DNA of 64,000 nt from an uncultured Methylomirabilota bacterium (GCA_963845565.1 CAWJSJ010000005.1:480001-544000), one strand, 5' to 3'; counted from the first letter of the stretch, positions 22,393-47,819 are shown. The notes: generated by a model from the sequence alone, not told the origin. A program made the numbers and translations.

Positions 22393-22610
22393 CGTCAATC
22401 GTCGGAGGGACGAGCGGTGGAACCCTCAGAGGCGTGGCGATTGTCGATGTCACAGTCGTGGCGGTAGACTCCGTCCACGATGTTCTGCCAGTTGTCAGTT
22501 GAGCATACCCCGAAAAGGACTCCGGCGATTTCGGGACCATACTTCCCGATTAGCTCATGCCCCTATCCCGTGAGGCTCTATGTACGCGTTTCGCAGACTC
22601 GTGGACGTAC

Positions 22611-27031: not shown

Positions 27032-27793
27032 TCACCGAAGGAATCCCAGGTACCATGCCACGGCTCGCTCCCCCCAGAACAGGGCCACGGTCGCACCGAA
27101 GGCGAGAAACGGTCCGAAAGGAATGTGCTCGCGCCGCCGCAACCGCCGGAGGCCGATCAGGGCAAGTCCCATCACCGACCCGACGAGACAGCCGACCAGG
27201 ATCGTGACCACAACCCCTCGCCAGCCCAGAAAGGCGCCAACCAGGGCGATGAGATTCAGGTCTCCCTCGCCCATCGCCTCCTGCCCGTAGAGCGCGCTGC
27301 CGAAAAAGAGCACAAGGTAGAGAAAGCCGGCGCCGGCAAGAGTTCCAATGACCCGATCCAGGATGGGCGGGTCGCCCAGCACCACGCCTGCCAGGAGGCC
27401 CAGCGGGATCCCCGGCATGGTGATGACGTTCGGAATGATCTGGTGGTCCAGATCGATAAAGGCGATCACCACCAGGGCGGAGAGAAAAGCCAGCAGAGTG
27501 ATGGCGAGCGGAGTGACGCCATAGCGCGACACGGTCGCGGCAAACAGGATTGCGGTCAAGCACTCCACCAGGGGATACCGCCAGGCGATGGGGCTTCCGC
27601 AGGCACGACAGCGGCCCCGCAAGAGGAGGAAGCTGAGGATCGGAATGTTGTCCCACGGTCGGATAGGGGCTTGGCACGCAGGGCAGTGGGAACCGGGGAA
27701 AACGATGCTCTCTTCCCGGGGGAGCCGGTGGATACACACATTGAGGAAACTACCCACCAGGCTGCCAAAGAGAAAGGCGAAAATGGGTATCAT
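27032..27793 (-). CDS. pilD: Prepilin peptidase/N-methyltransferase PilD
   Basis: GSFLNVCIHRLP, CPAC/CRAC, FIDLDH, MGEGD, IPFGPFL. Confidence 0.95.
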   Translation of the reverse strand: MIPIFAFLFGSLVGSFLNVCIHRLPREESIVFPGSHCPACQAPIRPWDNIPILSFLLLRGRCRACGSPIAWRYPLVECLTAILFAATVSRYGVTPLAITLLAFLSALVVIAFIDLDHQIIPNVITMPGIPLGLLAGVVLGDPPILDRVIGTLAGAGFLYLVLFFGSALYGQEAMGEGDLNLIALVGAFLGWRGVVVTILVGCLVGSVMGLALIGLRRLRRREHIPFGPFLAFGATVALFWGERAVAWYLGFLR

Positions 27794-27866
27794 GAGAAAT
27801 CGTCCCCTGTCTCGAGTGTCCGCCCGGCGCCGGCTGCCGGCTGCTCGGCCGCCGAGGCAGGATCGG

Positions 27867-29927
27867 TCATGATCCTGACGTTCTTGGAGGAGCGGAATGC
27901 TCCTGAGACGCGCCGGTGTGCTCCCGTCCCAGCCGGCGGATCTGCTCGGCGGCCTCTCGGACGGCCGCAGGGTTCGGTGCCGTCCGGAGCACCACGTGCC
28001 AGAGGCGAAGGCTCTCGGGCCGGTCGCCCCGCTCTGCCGCCAGCATGGCCAGGGCCCGGAAGGGTTGGGCCCGATCCGGCCGGATCTCCGCGGATCGAAG
28101 GAAGTGTTGCGTGGCCTCGCCGCCGCGCCCCGACTGGGCCAGCAGGGAGCCGAGAGCCTCCTCTGCTTCGTACAGGTCGGGGCGAAACTCCAGGACCCGG
28201 CGGTACCGTTCCATGGCCTCGGCTGGTCGTCCGGCCCGATCCAGGGCGCGCCCCAACCACAGGCCCAGATCCGCATCCTCCGGGAATCGGCCGATTCCCT
28301 CTTCACCGATGGCAACCGCCTCGCGAGGCTCGCCGATGACAAGATGGGCCATCAGCCGGGAGACGGAGTAGTCCCGGTCCCGCGCCCCCTCGGACGCCAG
28401 GCCGTCGAAGAGTTGAAAGCCGTCACGCGCTCTCCCCTGGAGGACATAGACCAGCGCGAGAATAGTGCGCGGTCGGCGGAGCGTCGGGTTCAGGCGGACC
28501 GCTTGCTCCAATGCAGCGGTGGCCCGCGGCAAATCGTTTGCCCGAAAGTACGTGAGACCGAGATTGAGATAGGGAATGGGTGCGCGCGGGGCGACCTCCG
28601 TCATGCGCGTAAACAGGGTCAGGTCGTTCCGCCACACCGGCGCATAGCGGTACGATTGCCACGAGTAGGCGATCAGCAGGAGTGCCAAACCTCCCCAGGC
28701 GATAGGCCTCCGGAAAGGCCACCGCCGGCCGTCCGTCGGCCCCAGCAGCACGGCGAACCCCAGCGCCAACAGGAGCGCCACCCCGACGGACGGCAGATAG
28801 AGGTAGCGATCGGCCAGCCCCATCTCGCGCGGCGAGAGTGGCACCAGATCCACCACGGGGCTGATCGTAACCAGGAACCACGCCGTTCCGAAGGCCACCC
28901 GCGGGGCCCGCCGCCACGACCAGATCAGGAGGGCGACGAGCCCCCCCCCGAGAAGCAGCCCGAGAGCCGGCCACAGGCTCAGAAACGACTCCGGCCGTTT
29001 CAAGGAGTAGAAGGGCTGCATGTGGGTCGGGACGAGGCTCAAGATGACGTAGCGGGCCAGGAGTTCGAACGACCCGGGCAGGCGCTGCCAGAGGCCGCCC
29101 CCCTGAAGGCGGTCCCCGGCGATGTTCAGCAGCTGCGGAAAGCGAAAGGCCGCGAAGGCCGCGGTGACGATCCAAAACGGGACCGAGCGCATCAGTGCTC
29201 GGCGCAAGGTGGTCCGCTCCGCGGGCTGGTCGGAGGCGGGGGAGTGCAGCAGGTCGCTCAGCACGAGCAGGGCGGGCACAGTGACCGCGGCCTCTTTGGA
29301 AAACAGGGCGAACGCCTGCATCGCCAAGGCGGCTCCGCCCCACGCGATTCGTCCTCGCCCCGGCGCGTCGGATCGCCGGTAGGCGAGCAGGCATCCCAAG
29401 ACCCCGATGCTGAGCAGCAGGTCGACGCGTGCGGCCACGAAGGCGGCGACCTCGACGTGCACGGGGTGCACGGCGAACAGGAGAGTTGCCAGGAGGGCGA
29501 TGTCGCGCCGCGCGCCCATTGCCAGGACGAGTCGATTCACGAGGAAGGTCACCGCGACGTGCAGCAGGAGGTTGGTAAGATGGGACATGGCGGGATGCGG
29601 ACCCCAGAGCGTCGCGTCCAGCGCCAGGCTCAGAGCCAGGGTGGCGCGACAGTAGGGACCCTCGATCACCCCCGACGTGAGCGAGGCCAAGTCGGATTGA
29701 AAGAACTGCAGAAAATTCCGCAGATCGCGGAGCGTCGGGCTCTGCACCAGGGCGACATCGTCCCAAACGAACTGATAGCCCAGACTCCCCAGGTAGGTCA
29801 CCGCAGCGAGGAGGAGCACGAGGACCACTGTCCACGCCCGGACCTGAATCGTCTCGGCTTGGGTCGCGTCGCCCGGAGCCGGGTCGGTGTCCGCGTGCAC
29901 GGGTCGTGATACCGCTGCCGTTGTCAT
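27867..29927 (-). CDS. TMTC-like GT-C glycosyltransferase with TPR repeats
   Basis: FVWDD, HLTNLLLH, FAVHPVHVE...R.DLL, LFSKE, ADRYLYLPS, VWRNDLTLF, then TPRs. Confidence 0.82.
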   Translation of the reverse strand: MTTAAVSRPVHADTDPAPGDATQAETIQVRAWTVVLVLLLAAVTYLGSLGYQFVWDDVALVQSPTLRDLRNFLQFFQSDLASLTSGVIEGPYCRATLALSLALDATLWGPHPAMSHLTNLLLHVAVTFLVNRLVLAMGARRDIALLATLLFAVHPVHVEVAAFVAARVDLLLSIGVLGCLLAYRRSDAPGRGRIAWGGAALAMQAFALFSKEAAVTVPALLVLSDLLHSPASDQPAERTTLRRALMRSVPFWIVTAAFAAFRFPQLLNIAGDRLQGGGLWQRLPGSFELLARYVILSLVPTHMQPFYSLKRPESFLSLWPALGLLLGGGLVALLIWSWRRAPRVAFGTAWFLVTISPVVDLVPLSPREMGLADRYLYLPSVGVALLLALGFAVLLGPTDGRRWPFRRPIAWGGLALLLIAYSWQSYRYAPVWRNDLTLFTRMTEVAPRAPIPYLNLGLTYFRANDLPRATAALEQAVRLNPTLRRPRTILALVYVLQGRARDGFQLFDGLASEGARDRDYSVSRLMAHLVIGEPREAVAIGEEGIGRFPEDADLGLWLGRALDRAGRPAEAMERYRRVLEFRPDLYEAEEALGSLLAQSGRGGEATQHFLRSAEIRPDRAQPFRALAMLAAERGDRPESLRLWHVVLRTAPNPAAVREAAEQIRRLGREHTGASQEHSAPPRTSGS

Positions 29928-31294
29928 TCCGACTCCCTATCGGGCTCTTCGGCGCCGAGCCCGGGCGTCGGTGACCTGCGCTTTCGCGCTCGGAAAATCA
30001 TCTCGCAGAAGCCCACGTATCGCAGGTCCTCGATGGTGCAGCCCGACTCGGTCAAGCGCTGGGCCAGGGTGGCGCGGGTGTAATGGGTGATGTGCTCGTG
30101 GGCGTAGGCGCCGGGCAGGATCTTGCCATAGGCCCACTCCAGGATCCACCAGAGGCGCCGACCGTAATCGGGGGTCCCGAGGATGAGGGTTCCACCCGGG
30201 CGGAGCACCCGCGTCAGTTCGTGGAAGACCTGCGGCGTGGCCGCAATATGCTCAATCACCTCGGAACAGATCACGACGTCAAACCGCTCCGCAGGAAAGG
30301 GGAGAGCGAAGACCGTCCCCTGCACCAATCGACGATGGTGGTCGCGCAGGAAGCGCAACTTCGGCAACAGGACATCTAGCCCGATGGCGTCGGGCAGATC
30401 CTGGATGATCCGGCTGGACCCGCACCCGATGTCCAGGATCCGGGCCGGGCGCGACTGGTCGGCCGCCCGCACGAAGCCCAGGGTGATGCGATGGCGCGCC
30501 CGCTGCCAGTACCGCTGGAGCGGGATGGGGCTGTCGAAGGCTCGATGGTCATAGTCGGCCGCTGCCACGGAGTTGCGGAGCCGCCACATCCGGAGCAGCG
30601 TGGTGAGGTACGCCCACCCAAACGCGACGATCCGCCGGAAGGATCGGCCGGCACCCCGCGCGGTGTAACGGAACGGGACTTCCCGGATCCGCCAGCCTTG
30701 GGCATGCACGCGGAGCAGGATCTCCTGTAAGATGTCAAAGTCTCGCGCGGTCACGGTGAGGTTGTCCAGAACGGCTCGCCGGTACAGGCGAAACCCACTG
30801 GAAAGGTCGCGGAGCTCCAGGGAGAGGACGCGGGCGTAGGTCCGGTTGAGGATATGGCTCAGCAGGCGGCGGACGGCTCCCATGTCGGCCCGCCCCCCGG
30901 CCACGTACCGGGACGCGATCAGCAATTCCGCGGCGTCCCGGTGCCGCCAGAACTCCTCGATGAACACCGGCCGATGCGAGCAGTCGGGGTCCATAGTGAT
31001 AATCCACGGAGCTGAGGTGGCTGCAAACCCCGCCAGGAGCGCCCCGCCGTAGTCTGGCCCTTCTTGCTGGATGACGCGCGCCCCGCGATGTGACGCCGCC
31101 TCGGCGGTTCCGTCCCAAGAGCCCCCGTCCACCACGACGAGTTCCCACGGGACGCCCAGCCCGTCCAGGGTCTCCCGCAGGGCGGGCAGGAGCAGTTCTA
31201 GGTTTTCCCGTTCGTTCCGCGCGGGGATGACCACGGCCACGTCGGGGGAGCGGGTGGCGGAATCTTCAGAAGCGCCGGGGCGGTCTTGGCTCAT
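29924..31294 (-). CDS. GT2 polyprenol-phosphate sugar synthase (Dpm1-like) fused to class I SAM methyltransferase
   Basis: VVIPARNE, VDGGSWDGT, MDPDCSH, ASRY, DLSSGFRLY; C-terminal ILDIGCGS, FDVVICSEVIEH, LRPGG. Confidence 0.88.
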   Translation of the reverse strand: MSQDRPGASEDSATRSPDVAVVIPARNERENLELLLPALRETLDGLGVPWELVVVDGGSWDGTAEAASHRGARVIQQEGPDYGGALLAGFAATSAPWIITMDPDCSHRPVFIEEFWRHRDAAELLIASRYVAGGRADMGAVRRLLSHILNRTYARVLSLELRDLSSGFRLYRRAVLDNLTVTARDFDILQEILLRVHAQGWRIREVPFRYTARGAGRSFRRIVAFGWAYLTTLLRMWRLRNSVAAADYDHRAFDSPIPLQRYWQRARHRITLGFVRAADQSRPARILDIGCGSSRIIQDLPDAIGLDVLLPKLRFLRDHHRRLVQGTVFALPFPAERFDVVICSEVIEHIAATPQVFHELTRVLRPGGTLILGTPDYGRRLWWILEWAYGKILPGAYAHEHITHYTRATLAQRLTESGCTIEDLRYVGFCEMIFRARKRRSPTPGLGAEEPDRESE

Positions 31295-31376: not shown

Positions 31377-32114
31377 TCATTGGTGAGGACTTGGACGTTG
31401 TCCCCGTCTCATTTCCCCCAGGAGCTTCGCGATCTCGCGCTGGGCAATCTCCCGGATCGCGTCGTTCTCGGAGCGCTCGTACATTTGCCGCCAGAGTTCC
31501 AAGGCGGTGTCGAGATGGCCGACCTTGGCCTGGAGCCGGATCAAAAACCGGGGGATGTAATGCGGGCGCCCGGGGAGGCGGTCCGTGATTTCCCACCAGT
31601 GCAACGCTTGCTGGTAATCCTGGAGTTCCAAAAAGTACAACCGCCCCAGATCGTGTGGAAGTTGCCAGGCCAAGGGATTGGCGGCGATCCCCTTCCGGTA
31701 GATCGCGATGGCGTTGGGAAACTGTCTGGCGATGGTGAGGAACAGTCCGCCGTACTGGTAGGCATCCAAGAAATGGGGGTCGAGCGAGGTCGTCATGTCC
31801 ACCAACTGATAGAGTTGGGGGAACCGCTCCTTCCCCTCGATCCGGGAGCCGAAGTACTGGACGGTTCGAATCCAGGTCAGGTCGGCCGCTAGGCCCGTGA
31901 ACCCCAGGAGCGCCGGCCGCAGGATCTCGGCGCGCGGGAAGAAGATCGGCTGGGGCGTTTCTGCCCGCGCCACCGCGCGCGCCTCGATCCCTCGGGAGGT
32001 GAGGATCGCCCCCGCCAAGGCCGCCGCGGCGATCGCCAGGGAGACCGCTTGCGCCAAGCGCGGCGGAGGGGTTCGCACGGATGCCCCCACCTGCAAGGCT
32101 CCGGACCCGCTCAT
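31377..32114 (-). CDS. Membrane-anchored TPR-like protein (PilG/XapA-like, pilus-associated)
   Basis: N-terminal TM, ADLTWIR, TSLDPHF, helical repeats; position next to the ABC pair in the pil cluster. Confidence 0.6.
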   Translation of the reverse strand: MSGSGALQVGASVRTPPPRLAQAVSLAIAAAALAGAILTSRGIEARAVARAETPQPIFFPRAEILRPALLGFTGLAADLTWIRTVQYFGSRIEGKERFPQLYQLVDMTTSLDPHFLDAYQYGGLFLTIARQFPNAIAIYRKGIAANPLAWQLPHDLGRLYFLELQDYQQALHWWEITDRLPGRPHYIPRFLIRLQAKVGHLDTALELWRQMYERSENDAIREIAQREIAKLLGEMRRGQRPSPHQ

Positions 32115-32878
32115 CGGAAATCACGCCGCTGGAACACCGCAATCGCGATCGCGAGGAGCGCGGCGGCGTAGAGCGCGCCGTAGATCGCCGTCAGTGCCAG
32201 CGTGCCGGGGTCCAACAACAGGTCGTTCGCGACGGCGCCGCTCAGGTTGAAACGCGAGAGGTTCGGCAGCAGGTAATAGAGGCCGACGGCCATGGCCTTG
32301 AGGGAGGCTCCACCGAACTGCGTAGCGAACGCCATCAAGTCGGCGCTTAATCGGCCGATGACGAACACCAGCAGGGTGTAGATCGCGCTCAAGGTCGGGG
32401 TCGAGAAGGTGGAAAAGAGGATGGCGGTTGCCGTCAACACGAGAAGCTCTACCAACGTGAAACCCGCCGCCAGCAGAATCCGGGGCGTCCAGTGATCTTC
32501 GAGCGCCCAGGCGAGGACCATGAGCCCGGCCGCCATGATGCCGAGGTTCACCGCCAAGGTGAGGCCCAGCCCCAGGAACTTCCCGACCAGGAATTCGGCT
32601 CGGCGCACCGGTTTGGAGAGCAGGGAGAAGATGGTGCGCCGCTCGATCTCGCGCGACACCAGGTTGATCCCGATGAAGACCGCGATGAACAGGCCAAACA
32701 GCGTGATGCAGGCCAGGCCTAGATTCTTCACGATCCGGCCCTCGCCGCCGACGCTCAAGGTGACGAGGATCGTCGAGCTTCCGATCATGGCGAGGGCAAA
32801 CACCAGAATGCTGTACAGGATCTTGTCGCGGACGGTCTCGGTGAAGGCCATCTGCGCGATGGTCAGGATGCGTCTCAC
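32111..32878 (-). CDS. ABC-2 type permease (PilI-like)
   Basis: 6 TM, EIERRTIFSLLSKPVRRAEFLVGKFLG, C-terminal FQRRDF. Confidence 0.88.
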   Translation of the reverse strand: MRRILTIAQMAFTETVRDKILYSILVFALAMIGSSTILVTLSVGGEGRIVKNLGLACITLFGLFIAVFIGINLVSREIERRTIFSLLSKPVRRAEFLVGKFLGLGLTLAVNLGIMAAGLMVLAWALEDHWTPRILLAAGFTLVELLVLTATAILFSTFSTPTLSAIYTLLVFVIGRLSADLMAFATQFGGASLKAMAVGLYYLLPNLSRFNLSGAVANDLLLDPGTLALTAIYGALYAAALLAIAIAVFQRRDFR

Positions 32879-33810
32879 GCTGTGGTCCCCCGGCTGGCCT
32901 CCAAGAAGATCGTTTCCAGGCTCCGCCGCTGCGGGACGACGGACAGCACCCGGCTCTTGGCGCCGACCAGCATGAAGAGAGCGACCTCCAACTCCGCCTC
33001 GCCCGGGAGCCGGACCATCACACGATCGTCCTGGACCAACGGCGGCGAAAGGGCCAGTCGCTCCACCGCCGCGAGTGTCTCCGCGGGAATGGAGGTCGCG
33101 GTGACCTCGATGGATTCCAATTCCTCTCCCAGCAAGGTGCGCATGGACCCCGAGCGGACCAGTCGCCCCCCGACCAGGATACCCACCCGGTCACAGATCA
33201 TCTCGACGTCGGGCAGGATGTGCGTGCTGAAGAAGACCGTGCGTCCCGCCGCCCGCTGCCGGAGGATGAGGTCCCTGACCTCCTTGCGGCCGATCGGATC
33301 CAGGCCGGACATCGGCTCGTCCAGGATCAGGAGGGACGGGTCGCCGAGCAGCGCCTGGGCGAGCCCCAGCCGCTGGACCATGCCCTTGGAGTACTTCCGA
33401 ATCTGCTGGCGCACCGCGCGGTCCAGCCCGACCTCCGTCAAAAGGGCCGGCACCTGCTCCCGGAGCGCTCCCCGCGGCACGCCCAGTAGTCGTCCGCAAA
33501 ACGTCAGGAACTCCTGTCCGGTCAAGTACTCGTAGAATGAGGGATTCTCGGGCAGAAAGCCGATGCGGCCCCGGGTGGAGGCATCACCCAGCGGGCGTGT
33601 CAACACGCGGCCGTTACCGGCGGTCGGCCGGATCAAGCCCAGCAAGAGCTTGATGGTGGTGGATTTCCCGGCCCCGTTGGGCCCCAGGTATCCGAAGGTC
33701 TCGCCGCCGCGGACCTCCAGGGTCAGGTCGCTCAGGACACGCACGCGTCGGCCCCAAAAGCCGACGCGGTAATCCTTGGACAGCCCTTCGATCTGGATGA
33801 CCGGTTCCAT
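32875..33810 (-). CDS. ABC transporter ATP-binding protein (PilH-like)
   Basis: GPNGAGKST, YSKGMVQR, LDEPMSGLDP. Confidence 0.93.
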   Translation of the reverse strand: MEPVIQIEGLSKDYRVGFWGRRVRVLSDLTLEVRGGETFGYLGPNGAGKSTTIKLLLGLIRPTAGNGRVLTRPLGDASTRGRIGFLPENPSFYEYLTGQEFLTFCGRLLGVPRGALREQVPALLTEVGLDRAVRQQIRKYSKGMVQRLGLAQALLGDPSLLILDEPMSGLDPIGRKEVRDLILRQRAAGRTVFFSTHILPDVEMICDRVGILVGGRLVRSGSMRTLLGEELESIEVTATSIPAETLAAVERLALSPPLVQDDRVMVRLPGEAELEVALFMLVGAKSRVLSVVPQRRSLETIFLEASRGTTA

Positions 33811-33913
33811 CCGCACCTCAGGTGTGGCAACCTTCCGTATTAGACCCAATCATTCCGCTGTTCGTCAAGAGGGTTTGCCATTCACGCCGCGGCTCCGGCG
33901 TCTGGAGGTGAGG

Positions 33914-36900
33914 TTACGACCCGGTTCCATACAAGGAGAAGGATAACTCCTCGACTGCCTTGCGGGCCGCGACGTTCATCGGTTCCAAGCGCAGGCAGCG
34001 GCGGAAAGCTTGGAGGGCCTGCGTCTTGTCGTCCTGCGCCCTGTGAAGTCTGCCCAGCGCGAGATAGACCTCTGGCTGGAAGGGATCCCTGAGGGCGGCC
34101 TTCCGGAGGGCGGCCAAGGCCTCATCGAAGCGCCTGGCCTCCAGGTTCGCCAGTCCCAGCTGGTATTGGGCGAATGCGTTCTCCGGGTCGCTGGACGCGG
34201 CCCGGCGAAACGCCTCGAGCGCCTCGGCCGGGCGGCCTGCGCCCTGGTATGCCAGGCCAAGACCGGACCACACACGTGCGTCCTTGGCAGTGATCTCCAC
34301 GGCGACGAGATACGCCCGGATCGCCTCGTCGAAGCGCCGTCGCTCCCGCAGCAGATCCGCCAAGCCGGCCGCGTTCCGCGGGTCCTTGGGGTGCAGTGCC
34401 GCCGCGCCGCGCAGGTGCGTCTCGGCGAGGTCCCACATCCGCTGTCCCCGGTACAATTGCGCGAGGGCCTCGTGCGCTTCGACCATGGTGGCGTCTAACC
34501 GAAGGACGGCCTTCAAGTCGGCTTCCGCCAAGAGGACAGACCCCGACCGGAGATAGATCTTTCCGCGATGAATCAGTGCGATGACGTCCTTGGGATTGCC
34601 CCGGAGTGCCCGCTCAAACTGAGGCATGGCCTCGTCCGGCAGATCCTTGGCCCAGAGCGCCAACCCCAGGTCCCGCCGGAACGCGGACGAGTTCAGGGAC
34701 TCGTCGGACAGGCCGACGATGGGCGGGTATGGTCGTCGCTCGAACGATTTCAGCACGCGCCAGTTCAGGTCCACGGTATCGGCGTACAGGCTGTCCGGCG
34801 CCGAGAATTCCAGGAAGGGCAGGTCGTCGGTGTTCACCAGCGCATGCTGGGCGTACTGGGCGGCGTCTTCCTCCACCAGGGCGAAATCCGCCAAGATGGC
34901 CAGCGGGGAGTGCAACCCCAGCCTTGCCATATCCTCCTTGAGGCCGGGGACCGCGCCGTATTTCGCCTGCAGGGTGGCGTGGTCCAGCGTCCAGGGGTCT
35001 TTCGAGCCGAGCAGGAGGAGATCCCCCCGGGTGGTGTTCCAGATGGTGGTGTGCGGGAACACGGACCGGAACGTCTTGACCACCATCTTCAGGTCTTCGG
35101 GGAAGAGTCCGTAGGTGTGGATCCACTGGCACACGATGCCTTTGGGGGCGAGCCGCTGAGCCGTCAGCTCGTAGAAATCCAGGGAGAACAGGTTCCCGAT
35201 GCCTCGCATCCATGGGTTCGACGGCTCGGAGATGATGACATCATAGCCTCCATCCGAGGCGAGGAGAAAGTTGCGGCCGTCGGCGATGGCCACGCGCGCC
35301 TTCGGGTTCTTCAGGAGCTCGCGATTCTCCTTGGCGAAAAACGCCGCGGCTTCCACGACCGCGGGCTCGATCTCGATGACGTCGATCCGCTCCAGCGGGT
35401 GGAGGGACACCGCCCCCGCCGTCACGCCGCTTCCCATGCCGATCACCAGCGCACGCTTGGCGTCGGGCCGGATGAACATGGGGAGATGCCCCGACATGAG
35501 CTGCGTGTGCATGTCCCCGGCGTTGCTGGCGTCCGTCTTTCCGTTGACCCGCATATACAGCAGCTCCCCCTGCCGGTGAACGGAAACGGTTGCGCTGAGC
35601 CCGTCCTTGTAATACAGGAGGCGGTCATCGGTTAGCATGGCGCTCCGGAACTCCGCCTTGCCGAGACGGCCGAAGTAGCTTCGTCCGTAGATGGCGACGC
35701 CGCTGGTCATGACGTTCGCGTCCCACGCGGGGGCGACGTACAACCCGCCCAGCGCAAGCAGGGAGATCGCGATCGCCGCCCCCTGTCGCCATCCGGTCAT
35801 CCGGGATGCGAGCAGGATCGCCACGGCGAGGCAGAGGTTCATGGACACCGCCAGCTTGAGTGTGAACTGCAGACCCCAGACGGGGATCAGCAGGAACCCG
35901 GCGACCATGGTGCCGGCGATCGCGCCGGTGGTGTTGACGAGGTACACCCGGCCGACATCGCGCCCAACACGGTTCATCGCCCTGGACACGATCTGGATTG
36001 CGCAGGGGAACGTGGCGCCCATGAAGAGGGTCGGGATGAACATGGCGAGCGCGCTGATAAAGAACTGGACCACTTTCATGAATCCGGGGGACTGGGAGAT
36101 CTGGAAGATCCGAAGGAACAGCTCGGGAATCCGGTCGAAGAACGGCGTCACCAAGAGCGCGCTCAGCCCGATACCCAGCTGGAGGCCGCCGAAGAAGACC
36201 GGAGTGATCCGGAGGCGTCCCGCCACGCGCGAGTACAGATAGCTTCCCAGGGCCAGGCCAGTGAGAAACGTCACCAGCATCGTGGTGAAGGCGTAGGTGG
36301 AGCTTCCGATGACGAGGGCGAGCGCTCTGGTCCAGGCGACCTCGTACATCATCGAGGCGGCCCCCGATATCCCCAGACCCACCACGGTGAGCCACACCGC
36401 CACGGCCGGCGGCCCCTCGGGCGCGGGAACCGTGATCTCCGACGCGGGTGCAGTCACCGCCACGGCCTCGGCCTGCCCGCCCGGGGTCTCGTGCCCAAGC
36501 TGCCGCAGGTGCCGGTCGAAGACGACCGCCAAGGCCCCGATCCCGATATTCGCGATGGCAGCGAGCAAGAGGGTGGTCCGGACGCCCAGTGTCGGGATGA
36601 GATGGAACCCCGCAGCGTATGTTCCCAGCACGGCGCCGAACGTGTTCAAGGCGTACAGCCTGCCCACCTGTCCACCCAGCACCTCGAGACTCCGCACGAA
36701 GAATCTGCTCAGCACCGGGAGTGTCGCACCCATGAGGGTGGTGGGGATCAACAGGATCAGGAAAATGAGCAGGAATTGCAACAGGCTGAAGGTGAAGAAT
36801 GACAGCCCGAACGCGCGATGGAGCGGGATGTAGATATCTTCAGCGCGAGAGAACAGGAACGGCGTGATGAGGGCGTACGCCCCGATTCCGATTTCGAGCA

Positions 36901-37165
36901 CTCCGTAGAGCCGGAGCGGGCGAGAACTCCGGTCGGCCACGCCTCCGAACAGGTAGCTCCCCAGGCCCAAGCCGGCCATGAAGGCGGCCAGGACGGTCGT
37001 GATGGCGAAGACCGTATGGCCGAATACGAGCCCAAGGATGCGCGTCCAGAGGACCTCGTAGATCAGGCCGGTTGCTCCCGAGCAGAGGAAGCAGACGGTG
37101 ACCGCGGCAAAGATCTGCCGCGTCTCCTTTTCGACCTCCCGCAGCGGATCGGCCCCTGAACCCAT
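33914..37165 (-). CDS. Fused MFS-like (2x6 TM + 1 TM) / spermidine-synthase-like SAM-binding domain / TPR protein
   Basis: Internal 6-TM duplication (YEVLWTR vs YEVAWTR; MGATLP vs MGATFP); IGMGSG, EIEPAV, ADGRNFL, DVIISEPSNPW; multiple TPRs. Confidence 0.85.
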   Translation of the reverse strand: MGSGADPLREVEKETRQIFAAVTVCFLCSGATGLIYEVLWTRILGLVFGHTVFAITTVLAAFMAGLGLGSYLFGGVADRSSRPLRLYGVLEIGIGAYALITPFLFSRAEDIYIPLHRAFGLSFFTFSLLQFLLIFLILLIPTTLMGATLPVLSRFFVRSLEVLGGQVGRLYALNTFGAVLGTYAAGFHLIPTLGVRTTLLLAAIANIGIGALAVVFDRHLRQLGHETPGGQAEAVAVTAPASEITVPAPEGPPAVAVWLTVVGLGISGAASMMYEVAWTRALALVIGSSTYAFTTMLVTFLTGLALGSYLYSRVAGRLRITPVFFGGLQLGIGLSALLVTPFFDRIPELFLRIFQISQSPGFMKVVQFFISALAMFIPTLFMGATFPCAIQIVSRAMNRVGRDVGRVYLVNTTGAIAGTMVAGFLLIPVWGLQFTLKLAVSMNLCLAVAILLASRMTGWRQGAAIAISLLALGGLYVAPAWDANVMTSGVAIYGRSYFGRLGKAEFRSAMLTDDRLLYYKDGLSATVSVHRQGELLYMRVNGKTDASNAGDMHTQLMSGHLPMFIRPDAKRALVIGMGSGVTAGAVSLHPLERIDVIEIEPAVVEAAAFFAKENRELLKNPKARVAIADGRNFLLASDGGYDVIISEPSNPWMRGIGNLFSLDFYELTAQRLAPKGIVCQWIHTYGLFPEDLKMVVKTFRSVFPHTTIWNTTRGDLLLLGSKDPWTLDHATLQAKYGAVPGLKEDMARLGLHSPLAILADFALVEEDAAQYAQHALVNTDDLPFLEFSAPDSLYADTVDLNWRVLKSFERRPYPPIVGLSDESLNSSAFRRDLGLALWAKDLPDEAMPQFERALRGNPKDVIALIHRGKIYLRSGSVLLAEADLKAVLRLDATMVEAHEALAQLYRGQRMWDLAETHLRGAAALHPKDPRNAAGLADLLRERRRFDEAIRAYLVAVEITAKDARVWSGLGLAYQGAGRPAEALEAFRRAASSDPENAFAQYQLGLANLEARRFDEALAALRKAALRDPFQPEVYLALGRLHRAQDDKTQALQAFRRCLRLEPMNVAARKAVEELSFSLYGTGS

Positions 37166-37244: not shown

Positions 37245-37292
37245 CAAAAAGAAGAAACAGAAAGGGGCAGGCGGTGATCTCACGCCTGCCCC
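37245..37292 (-). terminator. Rho-independent terminator downstream of pilA
   Basis: Stem GGGGCAGGCG/CGCCTGCCCC followed on the minus strand by TTTCTGTTTCTTCTTTTT. Confidence 0.8.
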
Positions 37293-37330
37293 CCTTCCGT
37301 TTCTAGCCCGGAATCAGTCCGGGGCGAGAG

Positions 37331-37807
37331 TTAGGCCTTGCCTTGCCAGGAACCGTACACGCTGGAGTAGCCGACGCCGCCGTCGACGGTTTCGGCCGGC
37401 ACGCCCGTGAGGGGCACGAAGCCTGTCGCCGGGCAGTCCGCGCCAGCCGCGGTCGGGCCCTTGCTGCAGACTGCCATCTCACCCTGCGTGGCCGGGGTGG
37501 CGGTGCTGGCGAATGCCGCCGAATAAGACCACGGGCCATTCCACGGATCGTTGTTCCCGATGTTGGCATAGCTGGAATCGCGCAGCTGCTTCATGGTGCC
37601 GGGGTTCTGGTTCTTGTCGTTCGAGTACACGATGGCCTGGGTGACCGCTGTCTTGGTGTCGGACGCCGCCCGCGCGTACTTCGATTTCTTCTGCGCCGAG
37701 AGCAGGTTCGGGATGGCGATGGCGGCCAGGATGCCGATGATCGCCACGACGATCAAGAGTTCGATGAGGGTAAAGCCCTTGGTCTTCTTCCGGATCAGCT
37801 TCCGCAT
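37331..37807 (-). CDS. pilA: Type IVa major pilin
   Basis: MRKLIRKKTKG|FTLIELLIVVAIIGILAAIAIP class III signal; Cys pair; own promoter and terminator; AGGAGG RBS. Confidence 0.92.
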   Translation of the reverse strand: MRKLIRKKTKGFTLIELLIVVAIIGILAAIAIPNLLSAQKKSKYARAASDTKTAVTQAIVYSNDKNQNPGTMKQLRDSSYANIGNNDPWNGPWSYSAAFASTATPATQGEMAVCSKGPTAAGADCPATGFVPLTGVPAETVDGGVGYSSVYGSWQGKA

Positions 37808-37889
37808 GGCACATCCTCCTTTTTTCGGGTTGGGTTGTGATTCCATCAAGCCACTTTTCGCAATGGAACCTCTGACGGGTTCTCTGGAA

Positions 37890-37905
37890 TGCAGAAGCGG
37901 TGCCA
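37890..37905 (-). promoter_or_regulatory. sigma54 -24/-12 promoter of pilA
   Basis: TGGCAC-CGCTT-CTGCA on minus strand, GG-N10-GC spacing. Confidence 0.82.
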
Positions 37906-38056
37906 TGAGGCTCTCGCTGCCTGATTCGGTTGAGGATTACCGAGAATCCATTTGGAAACAAGGAGTTGCAGATCAGAGAATCGGGAGAGAAAGTCTGCTA
38001 TTCGACGCGTGTGGAAGGCGTGGGAGGGGCAATTGGCTGAAACTTTTTTTCCTCGC

Positions 38057-38074: not shown

Positions 38075-40301
38075 TCATGGCTTGCAGGACCCCGGTTCCA
38101 GGGAGGGGGATTCGCTCAGGAGCCACCCCTCCCTGGTGAACCGCGTCACCGTCCGTGCGCATCGGACGGTACGAGCATCCGTTTCCCCGATCTCGACCTC
38201 GTAACGCACGGTCGCCGAACGCTCGCCACCGAGGAGCGAGTGAATCCAGGCCAGGCGGACCGGTTGGGACCCCGTTCCCCAGTCCGGGCGGCGGGTGGGA
38301 TGCAGCAGATAGGTTTCCGCCCGAGCCCAGCCCCCCTCGGCCCAACCGCGCCAAAAGCTCCCGATGACGGCCTCTGGCGACGTCTGCCCCGGGCGATTCG
38401 TGATGGCGCAGATCCCGCGGGTATCCGGCTGCGCGAGCAGGGCTGCGCGGGCGGTGGCGGCCTGCCGACCGGCGGGATCGGCGCCCTGTTCGTACAGGCG
38501 CGCTGCGATGCGACTCATGCGAGCCAAAAGGTACCGATCTCCAGGGGCCAGGCAACGGGCCTCGCTGGTCAGGACCCGTTCCGGAGTGAACAGGGACACG
38601 GCGCGCTCGTACGCGTGTATGCTCTCCGCGGATCTTCCGAGAGACGCCAACGCCTCGACCAGGCCGGCGTGATACGACAGGTGGGCTGCCGGCGCCAGTT
38701 CCACGGCGTGGCGGTACGCGGTCGTTGCCGCCTCCCAGTGGCCTCCGGCCAGCGCCATCTCGCCCACGAGGGCGTGAGCGTTGGGATCCTGCGAGGCACT
38801 CCACAGCGTCCGCTCGGCGGCCGTGAGCGCCGCCTGGGGGTCGCCGGCGCGGAGCCGGGTCCACGCGCCCCAGTAGTGAGCTGAGAAGCTGAGGGGATTG
38901 AGCCACCGTGCGCGAGCCAAGTTCTTCTCGGCGTCCGCCACGTGGCCCGCCGCCAACTCGGTGCGCCCCTGCGCCACCAGCGCGGCGGAACCGTAGCGGG
39001 CGGCCCCGACGCCTGCCACGATTGCCAGCGCCAGCAACACGGCGCCGGTCCGGATCGGGGACATCCGGCGGCGCGGCCGTTCCGTCGAGAGAGGCCGGCT
39101 CCCGGTGGCGGCGAGGCCAAGCAGGACTACGCTCGTGAGCGCGATGGCTGGGAAGCTCCAGTCCAGGTCCACGCCGTTGTGGACCGCAAACGCCACCAGC
39201 GCTGCGATCAGGATCATTCGACGGGAGCGCGCGGTGTGCGCGAGGGGAAGGCGGCCCCCGGCCATCGCGGCGCGCGCCAGGCAGATCAGGAGCGTGAGGC
39301 CCGCGAGGATCGCCACGGCCAGCCCGTATTCCGCCGCGATCTCCAGGTAGAGGTTGTGCGGGTTCTCGCCGCTCGTGTAGGGGAGCGCCTGATAGCGCGT
39401 CAACGCCATCGGGAAAGCTCCTGGCCCGACGCCAAGCCAGGGGTGGTCCCGGATCATGGCCCAGGTCCATTGCAGGATGGACAGACGCCACTGGACCGAG
39501 GTGTCGCCGCCCTCGTTCGGTCCGCCCGGCCAGACGAACCACAAGAGGCCGAGCAGTCGGTGACCCATGAGGTAGATTCCGCCGGCGACGAAAAACGTGG
39601 CAGCGCCTGCCCACAGCCATCGCCGCGCCCACCAGCGCTCCCGCTCCAGCAGCGCCCAGATCAGAATCGCCGACGCATGCCGCCAGCACGGCGCCCCGCG
39701 AGCGCGTGAGGTAGAGGCCGGCGGGAAATAGCGCGCAGCCGACGACCGCCGCGGCCCGCTCCAGCCGACTGCGGTCACCCAGGACCGACGCGACGGCCGC
39801 CCCGCCGGCCAGGAGGAGAAACCCGGCCATGGCATTCGGATAACCAAACGGCCCGACGAGGACCGTGGCGTAAAAGCCGGGCTCGCCTCCATGGAAGTAC
39901 CAGACGATCCCGAGCCCGGTCGCCAACAGCCCCGAGATCAGGCAGGCACCCAGGAGCACCCGCTCCGTCCGCGGATCGTCTCGGACACCGCGCATGGCAA
40001 GGGATCCCGCCACGACATACGCCGAGAGGAGGAGCACGGTTTGGATGGTGCGATCCCAGAGCAGGGTGTGGACCGCCGAGGCGACGACCAGGGATAGAAT
40101 CGCCAGGAACAGCGGCGTCGGCCGGGGTGGCCAGGCTGGGCGCCCCGTCAGGAGTGCCGCCGCTCCAGCCGACGCGAGGACCAGGAGCAGTGTGGCCTGC
40201 CCGGCCGCGGACCGACCGCCGTCCAGCCAGGGCAGCCCGATCAGGAGCGCGGCCATCAGGACGACGGAAAGCGGGATCACGCGAGACTCAGGGGGCGTCA
40301 T
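38075..40301 (-). pseudogene. O-antigen ligase (Wzy_C)/O-oligosaccharyltransferase-like + TPR, frameshifted near 39670
   Basis: Frame 1 gives GPFGYPNAMAG...TRSRGAVLA; a second frame continues ILIWALL...WRLSILQWTWAMIRDHPWLGVGPGAF...NPHNLYLE...HNGVD, then TPRs; span is 1 mod 3. Confidence 0.8.
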
Positions 40302-41688
40302 GATTCCGGTCGCGGTCCTGCCGATCGAGGCCGTACTTCCTCGCCCGATACCGGAAGGAGCGGAAATTGATGCCCAGCAATTGCGCCGCGCGCGTTTGGA
40401 CCCCGCCTGCCTTCTCGAGGGCGTCCCTGAGGAGCGCCTGCTCGATGTCGGCGATCACCTGTTCCAGGTTGAGCCCCTCGGGCGGAACCTCCCATTTCTG
40501 AGGACGGGACGTGGTGGCCGTGTGGAAGATGCTGGCCGGGAGCGTCTCGAGGTGGACCTCGTCGGTGGTCGCAAGCGCCACCGCGCGTTCCATCACGTTC
40601 TCCAGCTCTCGCACATTCCCGGGCCAGGCGTGCGCCAGCAGCGCCTCCATCGCCTCCGGCGCGATGCGCATGGCATGGCGGCCGGCGCGCGCCGCGAAAA
40701 GACTCAGGAAGTTGGTCGCCAGGAGGGGGATGTCTTCGCGACGATCGCGGAGCGGGGGCATCTCGACCGCGATGACGTTGAGACGGTAATACAGATCCTC
40801 CCGGAACGTGCCCATCCGGATGAGCTGGGCCGGGTCCTTGTTGGTGGCGGCGAGGGTGCGGATGTCCGCCTCCAGGTCCTCGGTGCCCCCGACCCGGCGG
40901 AACATATGGTCCTGGAGGAAGCGGAGCAGTTTGACCTGGAGGTTTGGGCTCATCTCGGCCACTTCGTCGAGGAACAGCGTTCCTCCGCGCGCCACCTCGA
41001 CCAAGCCGGCCTTGTGGGCGATGGCGCCGGTGAAGGAGCCCTTGACATGACCGAAGAGCTCGCTCTCCAGGAGTTCCTCCGGGATGGCCCCACAGTTGAT
41101 CGCCACGAAGGGCTTCTCGGCGCGCGGGGAGTTGTAGTGGATGGTCCGGGCCACGAGTTCCTTGCCCGTCCCGCTCTCCCCGGTAATCAGGAGGGACGAA
41201 TCCACCAGAGCCACGCGGCTGATCAGCTTGTACAACTCGACCATCCGGGGGCTCCGACCGATGATCCCGCGAAGTGCGGGCTCGGCGGCGGGCAGGGGGG
41301 AAGCTGTCTGGCTCTCGTGGCGTTCTGCCGCCTCCTCCAGCGCTCGCCGGATGACCAGTTTGATCTCGTCCATCTTGAAGGGTTTGGTGAGGTAGTCGAA
41401 CGCGCCTTGCTTCATGGCCTGGATGGCGGACTCCGAATCGGCGTAGGCGGTGATCATGATCACCGGCGTGGTGAACCCGTGCTCCCGTAATCCGGCCAGC
41501 AAGCCGACTCCATCCAGCCCGGGCATCTTGATATCGGAGATCACGAGATTCGGGGCGCGGTTCATGGCCAGCGCCAAGCCGGTCGCCCCATCCCCGGCGG
41601 TCAGGACCTCGTATCCTTCCTTTTCGAGCAGGATGCGCAAGAGATCGCGCATCCCGGCTTCATCGTCCACGACGAGGATGCGACTCAC
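40288..41688 (-). CDS. pilR: sigma54-dependent response regulator PilR
   Basis: REC (VVDDE, SDIKMP), GESGTGKE, GSFTGA, WPGNVRELEN, Fis HTH; pil context. Confidence 0.92.
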   Translation of the reverse strand: MSRILVVDDEAGMRDLLRILLEKEGYEVLTAGDGATGLALAMNRAPNLVISDIKMPGLDGVGLLAGLREHGFTTPVIMITAYADSESAIQAMKQGAFDYLTKPFKMDEIKLVIRRALEEAAERHESQTASPLPAAEPALRGIIGRSPRMVELYKLISRVALVDSSLLITGESGTGKELVARTIHYNSPRAEKPFVAINCGAIPEELLESELFGHVKGSFTGAIAHKAGLVEVARGGTLFLDEVAEMSPNLQVKLLRFLQDHMFRRVGGTEDLEADIRTLAATNKDPAQLIRMGTFREDLYYRLNVIAVEMPPLRDRREDIPLLATNFLSLFAARAGRHAMRIAPEAMEALLAHAWPGNVRELENVMERAVALATTDEVHLETLPASIFHTATTSRPQKWEVPPEGLNLEQVIADIEQALLRDALEKAGGVQTRAAQLLGINFRSFRYRARKYGLDRQDRDRNHDAP

Positions 41689-41779
41689 GATTCTTCCCTC
41701 ACCCCAGGCCAACGAGAAACGGCCGCCAACCGGTGCCGCGCACGCCCGTTATGGTCGGAGGGGGCGTGCCGCGTGCGGT

Positions 41780-43644: not shown

Positions 43645-44850
43645 CTACTTCCCGACGACCGTCACCAGCTTGAAGATGGGCAGGTACATGGCGATGACCA
43701 CGCCGCCGATCACGACACCCAGGAAGACCATGAGCATCGGCTCCAGGAGCGCGGTAAGGTTGGTCACCGCGGTGTCCACCTCCTCGTCGTAGAAGTCGGC
43801 GATCTTGCCCAGCATGGCGTCCAGGGCGCCCGTTTGCTCGCCCACGGCAATCATCTGGACCACCATCGGGGGGAAGACGCCCGACTCGCGCAAGGGGTCC
43901 GCAATCGTCTTGCCTTCGGCGATAGAGGCGCGGGTCCGGAGAACGGCGGCCTCCACGACCTTGTTGCCCGCCGTGCGGGCCGTGATGTCCAGCCCGTCCA
44001 GGATGGCGACGCCGCTGCTGATCAGCGTGCCCAGCGTCCGGGTGAACTTGGCGACGGCCACCTTGCGGATCAGGATCCCGAAGACCGGTGTCTTGATGAG
44101 GAACGCGTCAATCCGTTTCCTCCCGGCCTCCGTGCCGTACCACCACTTCACCCCCACGATCATTCCCGCGAGGACGGCCAGCCCGACCAGGAAGTAGTCG
44201 CGGACGATGCGGGAGAGTTCCAGCACGATCTGGGTCGGCAGCGGAAGCGCGGCGCCGAACCCCTCAAACATCGCCTTGAAGGTCGGGATGACAAAGACCA
44301 GCAGGAAGATCACGACCACCACCGCCACCGTCACGATGGTGGACGGGTAGATCATGGCCGATTTGACCTTCTTCTTGAGGCTCATCGCCTTTTCCATGTA
44401 CTGGGCCAGCCGGTTCAGGATGGTGTCCAGGATACCGCCCGCCTCGCCCGCCTCCACCATGTTGGCGTAGAGGGAGCTGAAGACCTTGGGGTGCTGCTTG
44501 AGGGCAGCCGCGAAGGTGGCGCCCCCTTCCACGGATTGCCGGATCTCCGTCAGGGTCTTCTTGAAGATCTTGTTCTCTTGCTGCGATGCCAGGATCTCCA
44601 GGCACTGGACCAGCGGCAGGCCGGCGTCGATCATGGTGGCGAACTGGCGCGTGAAGACCACGATCTCCTTCTCTGAGACCTTGTTGCCGATGCCGGGAAT
44701 CGTGATGTCCCTCGGCTTCCCGCGCACGGCGGTGGCGATGACCTGCTGCGAGCGGAGTCGCGCCACCACGGCCTCGCGGTTGGCCGCTTCCATCTCGCCG
44801 GTGATGGTCTGCCCGGCCCGGGTTCTCCCAGTGAAGACAAAGACCGCCAT
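43645..44850 (-). CDS. pilC: Type IV pilus platform protein PilC
   Basis: FTRQFATMIDAGLPL, GEAGGILD, GEQTGALD, MYLPIF. Confidence 0.95.
   Translation of the reverse strand: MAVFVFTGRTRAGQTITGEMEAANREAVVARLRSQQVIATAVRGKPRDITIPGIGNKVSEKEIVVFTRQFATMIDAGLPLVQCLEILASQQENKIFKKTLTEIRQSVEGGATFAAALKQHPKVFSSLYANMVEAGEAGGILDTILNRLAQYMEKAMSLKKKVKSAMIYPSTIVTVAVVVVIFLLVFVIPTFKAMFEGFGAALPLPTQIVLELSRIVRDYFLVGLAVLAGMIVGVKWWYGTEAGRKRIDAFLIKTPVFGILIRKVAVAKFTRTLGTLISSGVAILDGLDITARTAGNKVVEAAVLRTRASIAEGKTIADPLRESGVFPPMVVQMIAVGEQTGALDAMLGKIADFYDEEVDTAVTNLTALLEPMLMVFLGVVIGGVVIAMYLPIFKLVTVVGK

Positions 44851-44895: not shown

Positions 44896-45972
<1,077 letters not shown>

Positions 45973-46115: not shown

Positions 46116-46119
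<4 letters not shown>
46013..46119 (+). repeat. Dispersed double-hairpin repeat, copy E
   Basis: TTAG-GAGCCGTTACGAAAT-N19-ATTTCGTTACGGCTCCTTA...GACAACGGC-TTAG; right TTA is the pilB stop. Confidence 0.9.

Positions 46120-47819
<1,700 letters not shown>

Follow-up and report, generated by a model that had tools for sequence, protein, structure and literature searches.

A fused MFS, spermidine-synthase-like and TPR protein of a Methylomirabilota type IV pilus cluster as a candidate periplasmic transferase

Within a 64,000-nt stretch of DNA from an uncultured Methylomirabilota bacterium (GCA_963845565.1, CAWJSJ010000005.1:480001-544000; hereafter the window), a single minus-strand open reading frame (ORF) of 1083 amino acids (aa) fills positions 33914..37165, exactly the gene coordinates claimed in an earlier note on this DNA. 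The gene has an AGGAGGA ribosome-binding site 7 nt ahead of its ATG and lies in a type IV pilus cluster on the same strand. Its product, referred to here as the fusion protein, joins a membrane domain with the fold of the major facilitator superfamily (MFS), an additional transmembrane (TM) helix, a domain with the fold of the spermidine synthase SpeE and a tetratricopeptide repeat (TPR) superhelix. The reading that we favour, tentatively and at somewhat less than even likelihood, is that of an inner-membrane protein whose predicted periplasmic SpeE-fold domain serves as an S-adenosylmethionine (SAM)-dependent transferase of methyl or other alkyl groups to an exported substrate, and not as a maker of spermidine.

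The membrane module comprises 13 helices, a count given alike by Kyte-Doolittle hydropathy peaks and by two AlphaFold2 (AF2) models, one of the full-length protein (predicted local distance difference test (pLDDT), 87.4; predicted template modelling score (pTM), 0.83) and one of residues 1-482 (pLDDT 92.9, pTM 0.91). Six helices (aa 7-48, 51-79, 83-119, 123-156, 160-193 and 195-225) are followed by a disordered linker (aa 226-249), six further helices (aa 254-286, 290-314, 322-356, 360-393, 397-430 and 432-453), a 5-residue turn and a last helix (aa 459-477), within which the hydrophobic segment GAAIAISLLALGGLYVA corresponds to residues 461-477. The two 6-TM halves share 43% identity across 182 aa (E 6e-39). 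The halves of ordinary MFS proteins are far less alike than this, and the internal duplication of the module is a recent one, which is a new result of this analysis.

Superimposition of residues 13-458 onto known structures with VIA-align returned MFS transporters with Z-scores spanning 26.1 to 20.6, including NorA (28vj_B; Z 26.1, 350 residues aligned, root mean square deviation (rmsd) 3.7), VMAT2 (Z 26.0), OxlT (Z 25.7), VAChT (Z 25.6) and LtaA (Z 20.9). A Foldseek search with the TM-only model gave 199 matches at E<=0.001, and the top matches among those listed were all MFS transporters. By sequence the resemblance is weak, with Pfam MFS_1 reaching 16.6 bits (E 0.004) in the fusion protein, below its gathering score of 33.4, a cut-off that is passed by the homologues L048 (41.2 bits) and L017 (33.9 bits). 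Because the MFS fold stops near residue 456-460 in every structural match, helix 459-477 is an extra, thirteenth helix (TM13). The earlier note had counted by hand a duplicated 6+6 TM MFS-like module with one additional helix, a description that hydropathy, both AF2 models, the 43% identity of the halves and the structural matches all bear out; the AlphaFold check that it had proposed thus gives 13 helices, 12 of which belong to the MFS fold.

This arrangement bears on the side of the membrane at which the C-terminal domains reside. MFS transporters have both their N and C termini in the cytoplasm, and the motif-A-like stretches read from the sequence, GGVADRSSRP in loop 2-3 and SRVAGRLR in loop 8-9, agree with this orientation. 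Among 54 homologues, the mean number of lysine and arginine residues was 15.9 in the loops assigned as cytoplasmic vs 5.4 in those assigned as external, and the bias had the same direction in every one of the 54. Of 69 homologues drawn from many phyla, 67 have a hydrophobic TM13 segment (best 17-residue hydropathy >=1.5; minimum 1.4), and in most of the 69 this segment is preceded by a stretch rich in arginine and lysine and followed by a W-D/N motif. With the C terminus of the MFS fold in the cytoplasm, one further TM helix would place the enzyme domain outside. The helix count, the MFS orientation rule and the positive-inside bias together argue for a probable periplasmic location of both the SpeE-like domain and the TPR array, the side following from chain connectivity in the models. 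As a separate test of topology, six longer homologues were scanned for fused domains of a strictly extracytoplasmic type, and none was seen.

The domain that follows TM13 has the SpeE fold, an N-terminal β-hairpin and a Rossmann domain (1uir_A, Z 28.4, 283 residues aligned, rmsd 3.2 by VIA-align; Foldseek TMt up to 0.74), and Pfam Spermine_synth matches residues 557-706 (E 7e-18). A 59-sequence profile searched against the Protein Data Bank (PDB) found aminopropyltransferases (SpeE) as the nearest solved relatives, with E about 1e-29, and its only other matches were the UPF0020 methyltransferase 8vyd (E 4.6e-5) and the C-terminal domain of METTL13 (5wcj, E 3.5e-4). All of the SpeE equivalog cut-offs were missed (TIGR00417, 78.2 vs 249.55 bits; NF002010, 90.3 vs 260; NF002956, 128.2 vs 472). 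The TPR array that follows (approximately aa 830-1075 by Pfam) forms a region of ~260 residues that consensus-TPR structures match at Z 26.4-26.8 (VIA-align).

Residue equivalences to SpeE were taken from HMMER alignments to 1inl and 2b2c. The positions that bind the adenosyl moiety are kept, namely Gly576, Gly580, Glu598 (ribose) and Asp629 (adenine), while positions specific to SpeE are altered. The Asp of the G-loop is replaced by Ser579, the Gln of the N-terminal hairpin by Ala525, the diamine-binding Tyr by Thr554 and the second Asp of the D-S-x-D-P motif by Asn650; the catalytic Asp at the end of β4 is replaced conservatively by Glu647. In SpeE, the Gln and the G-loop Asp hold the amine of decarboxylated SAM (dcSAM). 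The SpeE family, represented by TIGR00417, PRK00811 and the membrane-anchored PRK03612, therefore shares with the fusion protein its fold, G-x-G-x-G loop, ribose Glu and adenine Asp, but has the G-loop Asp, the Gln, the Tyr and the second Asp of DSxDP, all four of which are replaced in the fusion protein, whose domain is moreover predicted to be extracytoplasmic. The replacements of GGGDG by IGMGSG (aa 575-580) and of DxxDP by ISEPSNP (aa 645-651), both reported in the earlier note, are found in the translated ORF and in the alignments. Residues 650-656 form a loop of low pLDDT in the AF2 model, at a position where SpeE has a mobile gate-keeping loop. According to the report on a fungal methyltransferase described below (PMC10349129), the acid in GxG(D/E)G selects dcSAM in aminopropyltransferases.

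Conservation was assessed in two sets of homologues. Set A1 (54 sequences) came from a word-based protein search and also contains the SEPSNPW motif, and set A2 (59 sequences) consists of loci retrieved with the patterns SEPSNPW[IM] and DD[LT][PL]xLEFSA. Position 579 is Ser in all 54 sequences of A1 and Ser, Thr or Ala in A2 (53, 4 and 2 of the 59, respectively), never Asp or Glu, so the loss of the aminopropyltransferase G-loop Asp that the earlier note had claimed extends across both sets. Position 554 is never Tyr in either. Position 647 is Glu in 53 of 54 and in 59 of 59 sequences. Lys543, Asp551, Glu598, Asp629, Asp642, Gln680, Trp681, Tyr685 and Asp715 are invariant in both sets, and Asp545 and Glu647 are invariant or nearly so. 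The SpeE-like domain still looks like an enzyme, because the polar residues of its pocket vary little or not at all and because the profile reaches the METTL13 C-domain. A canonical speD-speE pair is present elsewhere in the genome (C5:798506-800112; SpeE, 237.5 bits), and spermidine synthesis therefore has no need of the fusion gene.

Comparison with tested proteins identified the fungal enzyme NHMT (Aspergillus nidulans AN4663) as the closest tested analogue, a link that is new in this analysis. The study by Batth et al. 2023 (PMC10349129) describes NHMT, formerly annotated as a spermidine synthase family protein, as seven TM helices followed by a spermidine-synthase (SpdS)-like domain of seven β-strands. 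Isoleucine 322 stands where GxG(D/E)G has its acid, the active site was targeted with the mutant E340A and segment 389-394 is family-specific. The enzyme resides in the endoplasmic reticulum, where the N-terminal His of secreted lytic polysaccharide monooxygenases is methylated only after correct cleavage of the signal peptide, and removal of the TM domain abolished the modification; its authors, by BLAST, found the 7TM domain in filamentous fungi only (PMC10349129). AN4663 has 452 homologues in fungi.

By that published description, the two proteins have in common an odd number of TM helices, an SpdS-like domain, a non-acidic residue in the G-loop (Ile322 in NHMT, Ser579 in the fusion protein) and the ribose Glu (Glu340 and Glu598). 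Residue spacing is similar as well. Counted from Ser579, Glu598 lies at +19 and SEPSNPW at +67 to +73, and counted from Ile322, Glu340 lies at +18 and segment 389-394 at +67 to +72. A single bacterial module, of 6+1 TM helices and the domain, corresponds to the NHMT architecture as far as the published description and the residue spacing go. The proteins differ in that NHMT, so described, has 7 TM helices and no TPR array, whereas the fusion protein has 6+6+1 TM helices and a TPR array. The C-domain of METTL13 (5WCJ) offers a second comparison, since its report describes an SpdS-like fold that methylates protein amino groups with SAM, as an N-terminal methyltransferase (PMC6109062); this domain is soluble, cytosolic and eukaryotic, and is only a distant relative of that in the fusion protein. 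For the membrane part, plant GoSAMT1/2 are described as MFS-type putative Golgi SAM importers serving lumenal polysaccharide methyltransferases (10.1101/2021.07.06.451061). There, transporter and enzyme are separate proteins of a eukaryotic organelle, and the likeness of the fusion protein to them is one of description.

In the mechanism that we propose, Ser579 in place of the G-loop Asp would leave room for the carboxylate of SAM, the fused MFS domain would supply SAM or remove S-adenosylhomocysteine, in a way like that proposed for SAM import by GoSAMT, and the substrate would be held by the TPR array. The earlier note had proposed this role for the MFS domain, with pilin or its glycan as the putative methyl acceptor. 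The position of the gene between pilA and pilD would make a pilus-related substrate likely in this clade, either a pilin or a protein of pilus assembly. These steps differ in the strength with which we hold them. If the domain is periplasmic, methyl transfer from SAM has in our estimate about an even chance; under the same condition, the MFS part as the route of the cofactor and a pilus protein as the acceptor in this clade are both possible but doubtful. The most specific form of the proposal is a bacterial counterpart of NHMT, that is, a periplasm-facing SAM methyltransferase with its own fused MFS SAM exporter that would mark pilins or other exported proteins once these have passed the inner membrane, and we regard it as rather unlikely.

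Several points weigh against the favoured reading. The earlier note's claim of an extracytoplasmic enzyme stands as a prediction from the MFS fold, the conserved TM13 and the charge bias in all 54 homologues, and the readings of topology, cofactor, transport and substrate all rest on prediction and analogy. We know of no availability of SAM in the bacterial periplasm. SpeE enzymes are by far the closest relatives in the profile search of the PDB, no Pfam methyltransferase family matches the fusion protein at E<=0.01, and the catalytic acid is kept, as Glu647, which is compatible with aminopropyl-type chemistry. The invariance of SEPSNPW and LEFSAP in A2 is at least partly circular because its loci were retrieved with these patterns. 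The fusion gene does adjoin pilA, which lies directly upstream across a gap of 165 nt, but the position 'directly downstream of pilA' given in the earlier note counts for less than it implied. A terminator-like hairpin with a U-rich tail, likely an intrinsic terminator or attenuator, lies between the two genes, and because of it the fusion gene is not simply co-transcribed with pilA; a consensus terminator scan did not report this hairpin. By Pfam, a pilin is the upstream neighbour in 2 of 63 family loci, the other upstream neighbours being multihaem cytochromes, outer-membrane barrels, kinases and unrelated enzymes, and the same genome has at least four loci of the family elsewhere.

The alternative that survives best, although we consider it unlikely, is a periplasmic pseudo-enzyme or scaffold, in which the SpeE-like domain would only bind a ligand or partner and, with the TPR array, would offer a platform on which exported proteins (pilus components in the present case) are assembled or chaperoned, the MFS part being a membrane anchor. 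The size of the TPR array is in keeping with such a role, as are the varied exported proteins (cytochromes, outer-membrane barrels and pilins) encoded next to family members and the lack of a known periplasmic source of cofactor; PilW and PilF occur among the structural matches of the array, but as generic TPR proteins (Z 21.1). The invariance across phyla of the adenosyl-binding residues and of about ten further polar residues of the pocket, a pattern typical of catalysis, speaks against it, and a complete MFS fold with conserved motifs would be a costly anchor.

Transport could instead be the primary function, with the MFS domain moving a polyamine, an organic cation or a lipid-linked sugar from the neighbouring glycosyltransferase (GT2) gene and the SpeE-like domain modifying or sensing this cargo and not a protein. 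We judge this distinctly unlikely. The best MFS matches are indeed organic-cation exporters or antiporters (NorA, VMAT2 and VAChT), the lipid flippase LtaA is also matched, and the locus includes a GT2 and methyltransferase gene, a Wzy_C/TPR gene and a YfhO-like gene. However, the MFS Z-scores are nearly tied, so that no subfamily is assigned, the TPR array points to a protein partner and the glycan genes do not recur next to family members in general.

Less probable still is a periplasmic transferase of an aminopropyl group from dcSAM, or of a 3-amino-3-carboxypropyl group from SAM, that would act on an exported acceptor with Glu647 as the base. Aminopropyltransferases are the nearest proteins in both sequence and fold, an acid is kept at the catalytic Asp position in nearly every homologue (53 of 54; 59 of 59), and the genome, having speD, makes dcSAM. 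Nevertheless, the G-loop Asp and the Gln are replaced by Ser579 and Ala525, and NHMT and the METTL13 C-domain, two tested SpdS-like enzymes with a non-acidic G-loop, transfer methyl groups according to the reports on them. That the database name is correct, with the protein a polyamine aminopropyltransferase anchored to the membrane on its cytoplasmic side and producing spermidine or a related polyamine, is very improbable, since the Spermine_synth match, the SpeE fold and the names that the Joint Genome Institute (JGI) and NCBI give to homologues are outweighed by the missed SpeE equivalog cut-offs, the absence of the G-loop Asp, the Tyr and the second Asp, the thirteenth TM helix after an N-in/C-in fold and the canonical speD-speE pair elsewhere in the genome.

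To our knowledge, SAM-dependent chemistry is assumed to be limited to the bacterial cytoplasm. If this family works outside the membrane, the widespread label 'spermidine synthase' is wrong, and an entire tier of modifications made to pilins, cytochromes and other proteins after their export has been overlooked. If the parallel with NHMT also holds, no SAM-using enzyme would have been shown to work outside the bacterial cytoplasm before the fusion protein, which would represent a new class of pilus modification. The NHMT precedent makes the idea directly testable by experiment, and it raises the question of whether the '7TM domain' of NHMT is a half-MFS module with bacterial relatives.

The fusion protein belongs to NCBIfam NF037959, 'fused MFS/spermidine synthase', which it matches over two stretches with 166.3 bits vs a cut-off of 40 (E 1e-48); this model also retrieves the gene when the whole genome is searched. 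The protein carries the MFS-type membrane domain N-terminal to the SpeE-like domain that this family calls for. The model describes one membrane module and the SpeE-like domain, whereas the fusion protein contains a second module and a TPR tail. The name was already known, with no function attached to it, and full-length homologues recorded for Methylomirabilota and Rokubacteria bear it too; at JGI and NCBI, homologues go by the name 'spermidine synthase'. The family is very large, and Anaeromyxobacter is among the carriers of homologues (loci L022 and L034). In one search, 4811 proteins scored E<=0.001 among 7999 candidates, and 588 family stretches were confirmed in species-representative genomes of many phyla. 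Literature searches found no functional study of the bacterial NF037959 family, a lone 'spermidine synthase' match being an unrelated mention of H. pylori. The ESM Atlas yielded bacterial clusters alone, all of this family; in some of them 13-30% of the members touch methyltransferase Pfams, which is no more than a lead.

At least four further NF037959 loci are present in the same genome. Three of the four are single-module proteins of ~7 TM helices with the G-loops GLGGGS, GGGGYT and GLGAGS and with D-A-x-N/S...I-P motifs in place of the SEPSNPW that defines the subgroup of the fusion protein. The fourth (C2:645102-647129) is a second full-length SEPSNPW paralogue, whose flanks gave no informative Pfam matches and whose small flanking ORFs look spurious. 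A C-terminal TDD-x-x-P motif is common to all four. We infer that the single-module relatives work as dimers.

The coordinates of these features and of the surrounding genes are given in Table 1. The leader of pilA reads MRKLIRKKTKG|FTLIELL, and the mature pilin starts at ORF residue 45. The ABC ATPase and permease genes, and likewise the permease gene and the 245-aa ORF, overlap by 4 nt, and a gene for a TPR protein lies between the GT2-methyltransferase fusion and the prepilin peptidase. In Myxococcus xanthus the gene order is pilA-pilG-pilH-pilI-pilD, which the order of pilA, the ABC genes and pilD in the window recalls. The products of M. xanthus pilGHI are said to be necessary for pilin translocation (PMC3724824).

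Table 1 Features of the fusion gene, its paralogues and the pilus cluster (window positions unless a contig is named).
Feature	Position	Strand	Basis
Whole ORF: MFS fold, TM13, SpeE-like domain, TPR	33914..37165	-	NF037959 166.3 bits; AF2 pLDDT 87.4
Residues 1-458: 12-TM MFS-fold domain, two 6-TM halves, disordered linker 226-249	35792..37165	-	Structure matches, halves 43% identical
Residues 459-477: 13th TM helix outside MFS fold	35735..35791	-	AF2 helix 459-477
Residues 484-794: SpeE-fold (class I Rossmann) domain, non-SpeE active site	34784..35716	-	Pfam Spermine_synth E 7e-18
G-loop G576-M-G-S579-G580, SpeE equivalent GGGDG	35426..35440	-	HMMER alignment, conservation
Post-β4 motif S646-E-P-S-N-P-W652, SpeE equivalent D-S-x-D-P	35210..35230	-	HMMER alignment to 1inl, conservation
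Residues 824-1083: TPR superhelix	33917..34696	-	Pfam TPR families; structure matches
Further NF037959 loci, same genome (G000)	C5:116936-118396; C2:508139-509752; C2:1073711-1074475; C2:645102-647129		Profile search of genome
pilB	46116-47819	-	Pfam
pilT	44896-45972	-	Pfam
pilC	43645-44850	-	Pfam
Sigma-54 PilR-type regulator	40288-41712	-	Pfam
Wzy_C (O-antigen-ligase-like) + TPR gene between pilR and pilA	38075-40301	-	Pfam
pilA, type IV major pilin	37331-37906	-	N_methyl E 4.7e-10; PilA_Myxo model E 1.9e-14, below its cut-off
Terminator-like hairpin and U-rich tail, gap between pilA and fusion gene	37253-37304	-	-37.2 kcal/mol, z -6.07; 0/200 shuffles as stable
ABC ATPase	32875-33849	-	Pfam
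ABC-2 permease	32111-32878	-	Pfam
245-aa ORF without family match	31377-32114	-	Pfam scan
GT2 + SAM methyltransferase fusion (polyprenyl-phosphate hexose transferase-like, AglJ-type)	29924-31294	-	
Prepilin peptidase (pilD)	27032-28342	-	Pfam
Protein with YfhO-like C-terminus, in or next to pilus cluster	22557-24785	+	

The pilR...pilA...pilD setting is found in six Methylomirabilota loci, the window and L009-L013, and the ABC ATPase, the ABC-2 permease and the 245-aa ORF accompany the fusion gene in all five of the latter; in L011-L013 the order is altered, with the fusion gene after the ABC genes. A Verrucomicrobiia locus (L059) has pilB, pilC and pilR, a pilin directly upstream of the family member and pilD downstream. 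A pilin-type N-terminal motif occurs anywhere in flanks of up to 6 kb in 5 of 73 loci. In a quick maximum-likelihood tree of 69 family members, the pilus-linked rows form one Methylomirabilota clade of six (Shimodaira-Hasegawa approximate likelihood-ratio test (SH-aLRT) 88) and two distant branches. The type IV pilus label requires 3 changes on this tree vs a mean of 7.7 when shuffled, and pilus linkage was found in 7 of the 68 rows other than that of the fusion protein. The pilus link is thus real in this clade and recurrent elsewhere, but not a family-wide property, most members lying in unrelated surroundings, and its recurrence on three branches is a new result of this analysis. Elsewhere in the family, members adjoin multihaem MtrC/MtrF-like cytochromes or a cbb3-type cytochrome c (L016, L022 and L024).

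In one metatranscriptome (X15), contigs with 0-2 mismatches cover four parts of the fusion gene and also match pilA. Because carry-over of DNA is possible, these contigs are weak evidence of expression, and expression of the fusion gene in the source of X15 is possible. X15 leaves parts of the region uncovered and a second metatranscriptome (X17) matches related strains only, gaps to which no weight is attached. Over the conserved stretch encoding the pilin N terminus (37589-37805), the summed contig depth was very high, 3060 in X15 and 952 in X17, with many loose ends from the pilins of other organisms, and this depth is no measure of the expression of this organism.

The Wzy_C and TPR gene upstream of pilA is split over two frames in the window, with a break near 39669. 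In L009 and L010 it is read through without a break. At 39669, one base is missing from DNA contigs of two runs, each from a different study, which argues for either an assembly error or a strain-specific frameshift. The intact gene resembles pilin O-oligosaccharyltransferases of the PilO/TfpO/PglL type. Together with the GT2-methyltransferase fusion and the YfhO-like gene, it suggests that pilin or another surface protein may be glycosylated.

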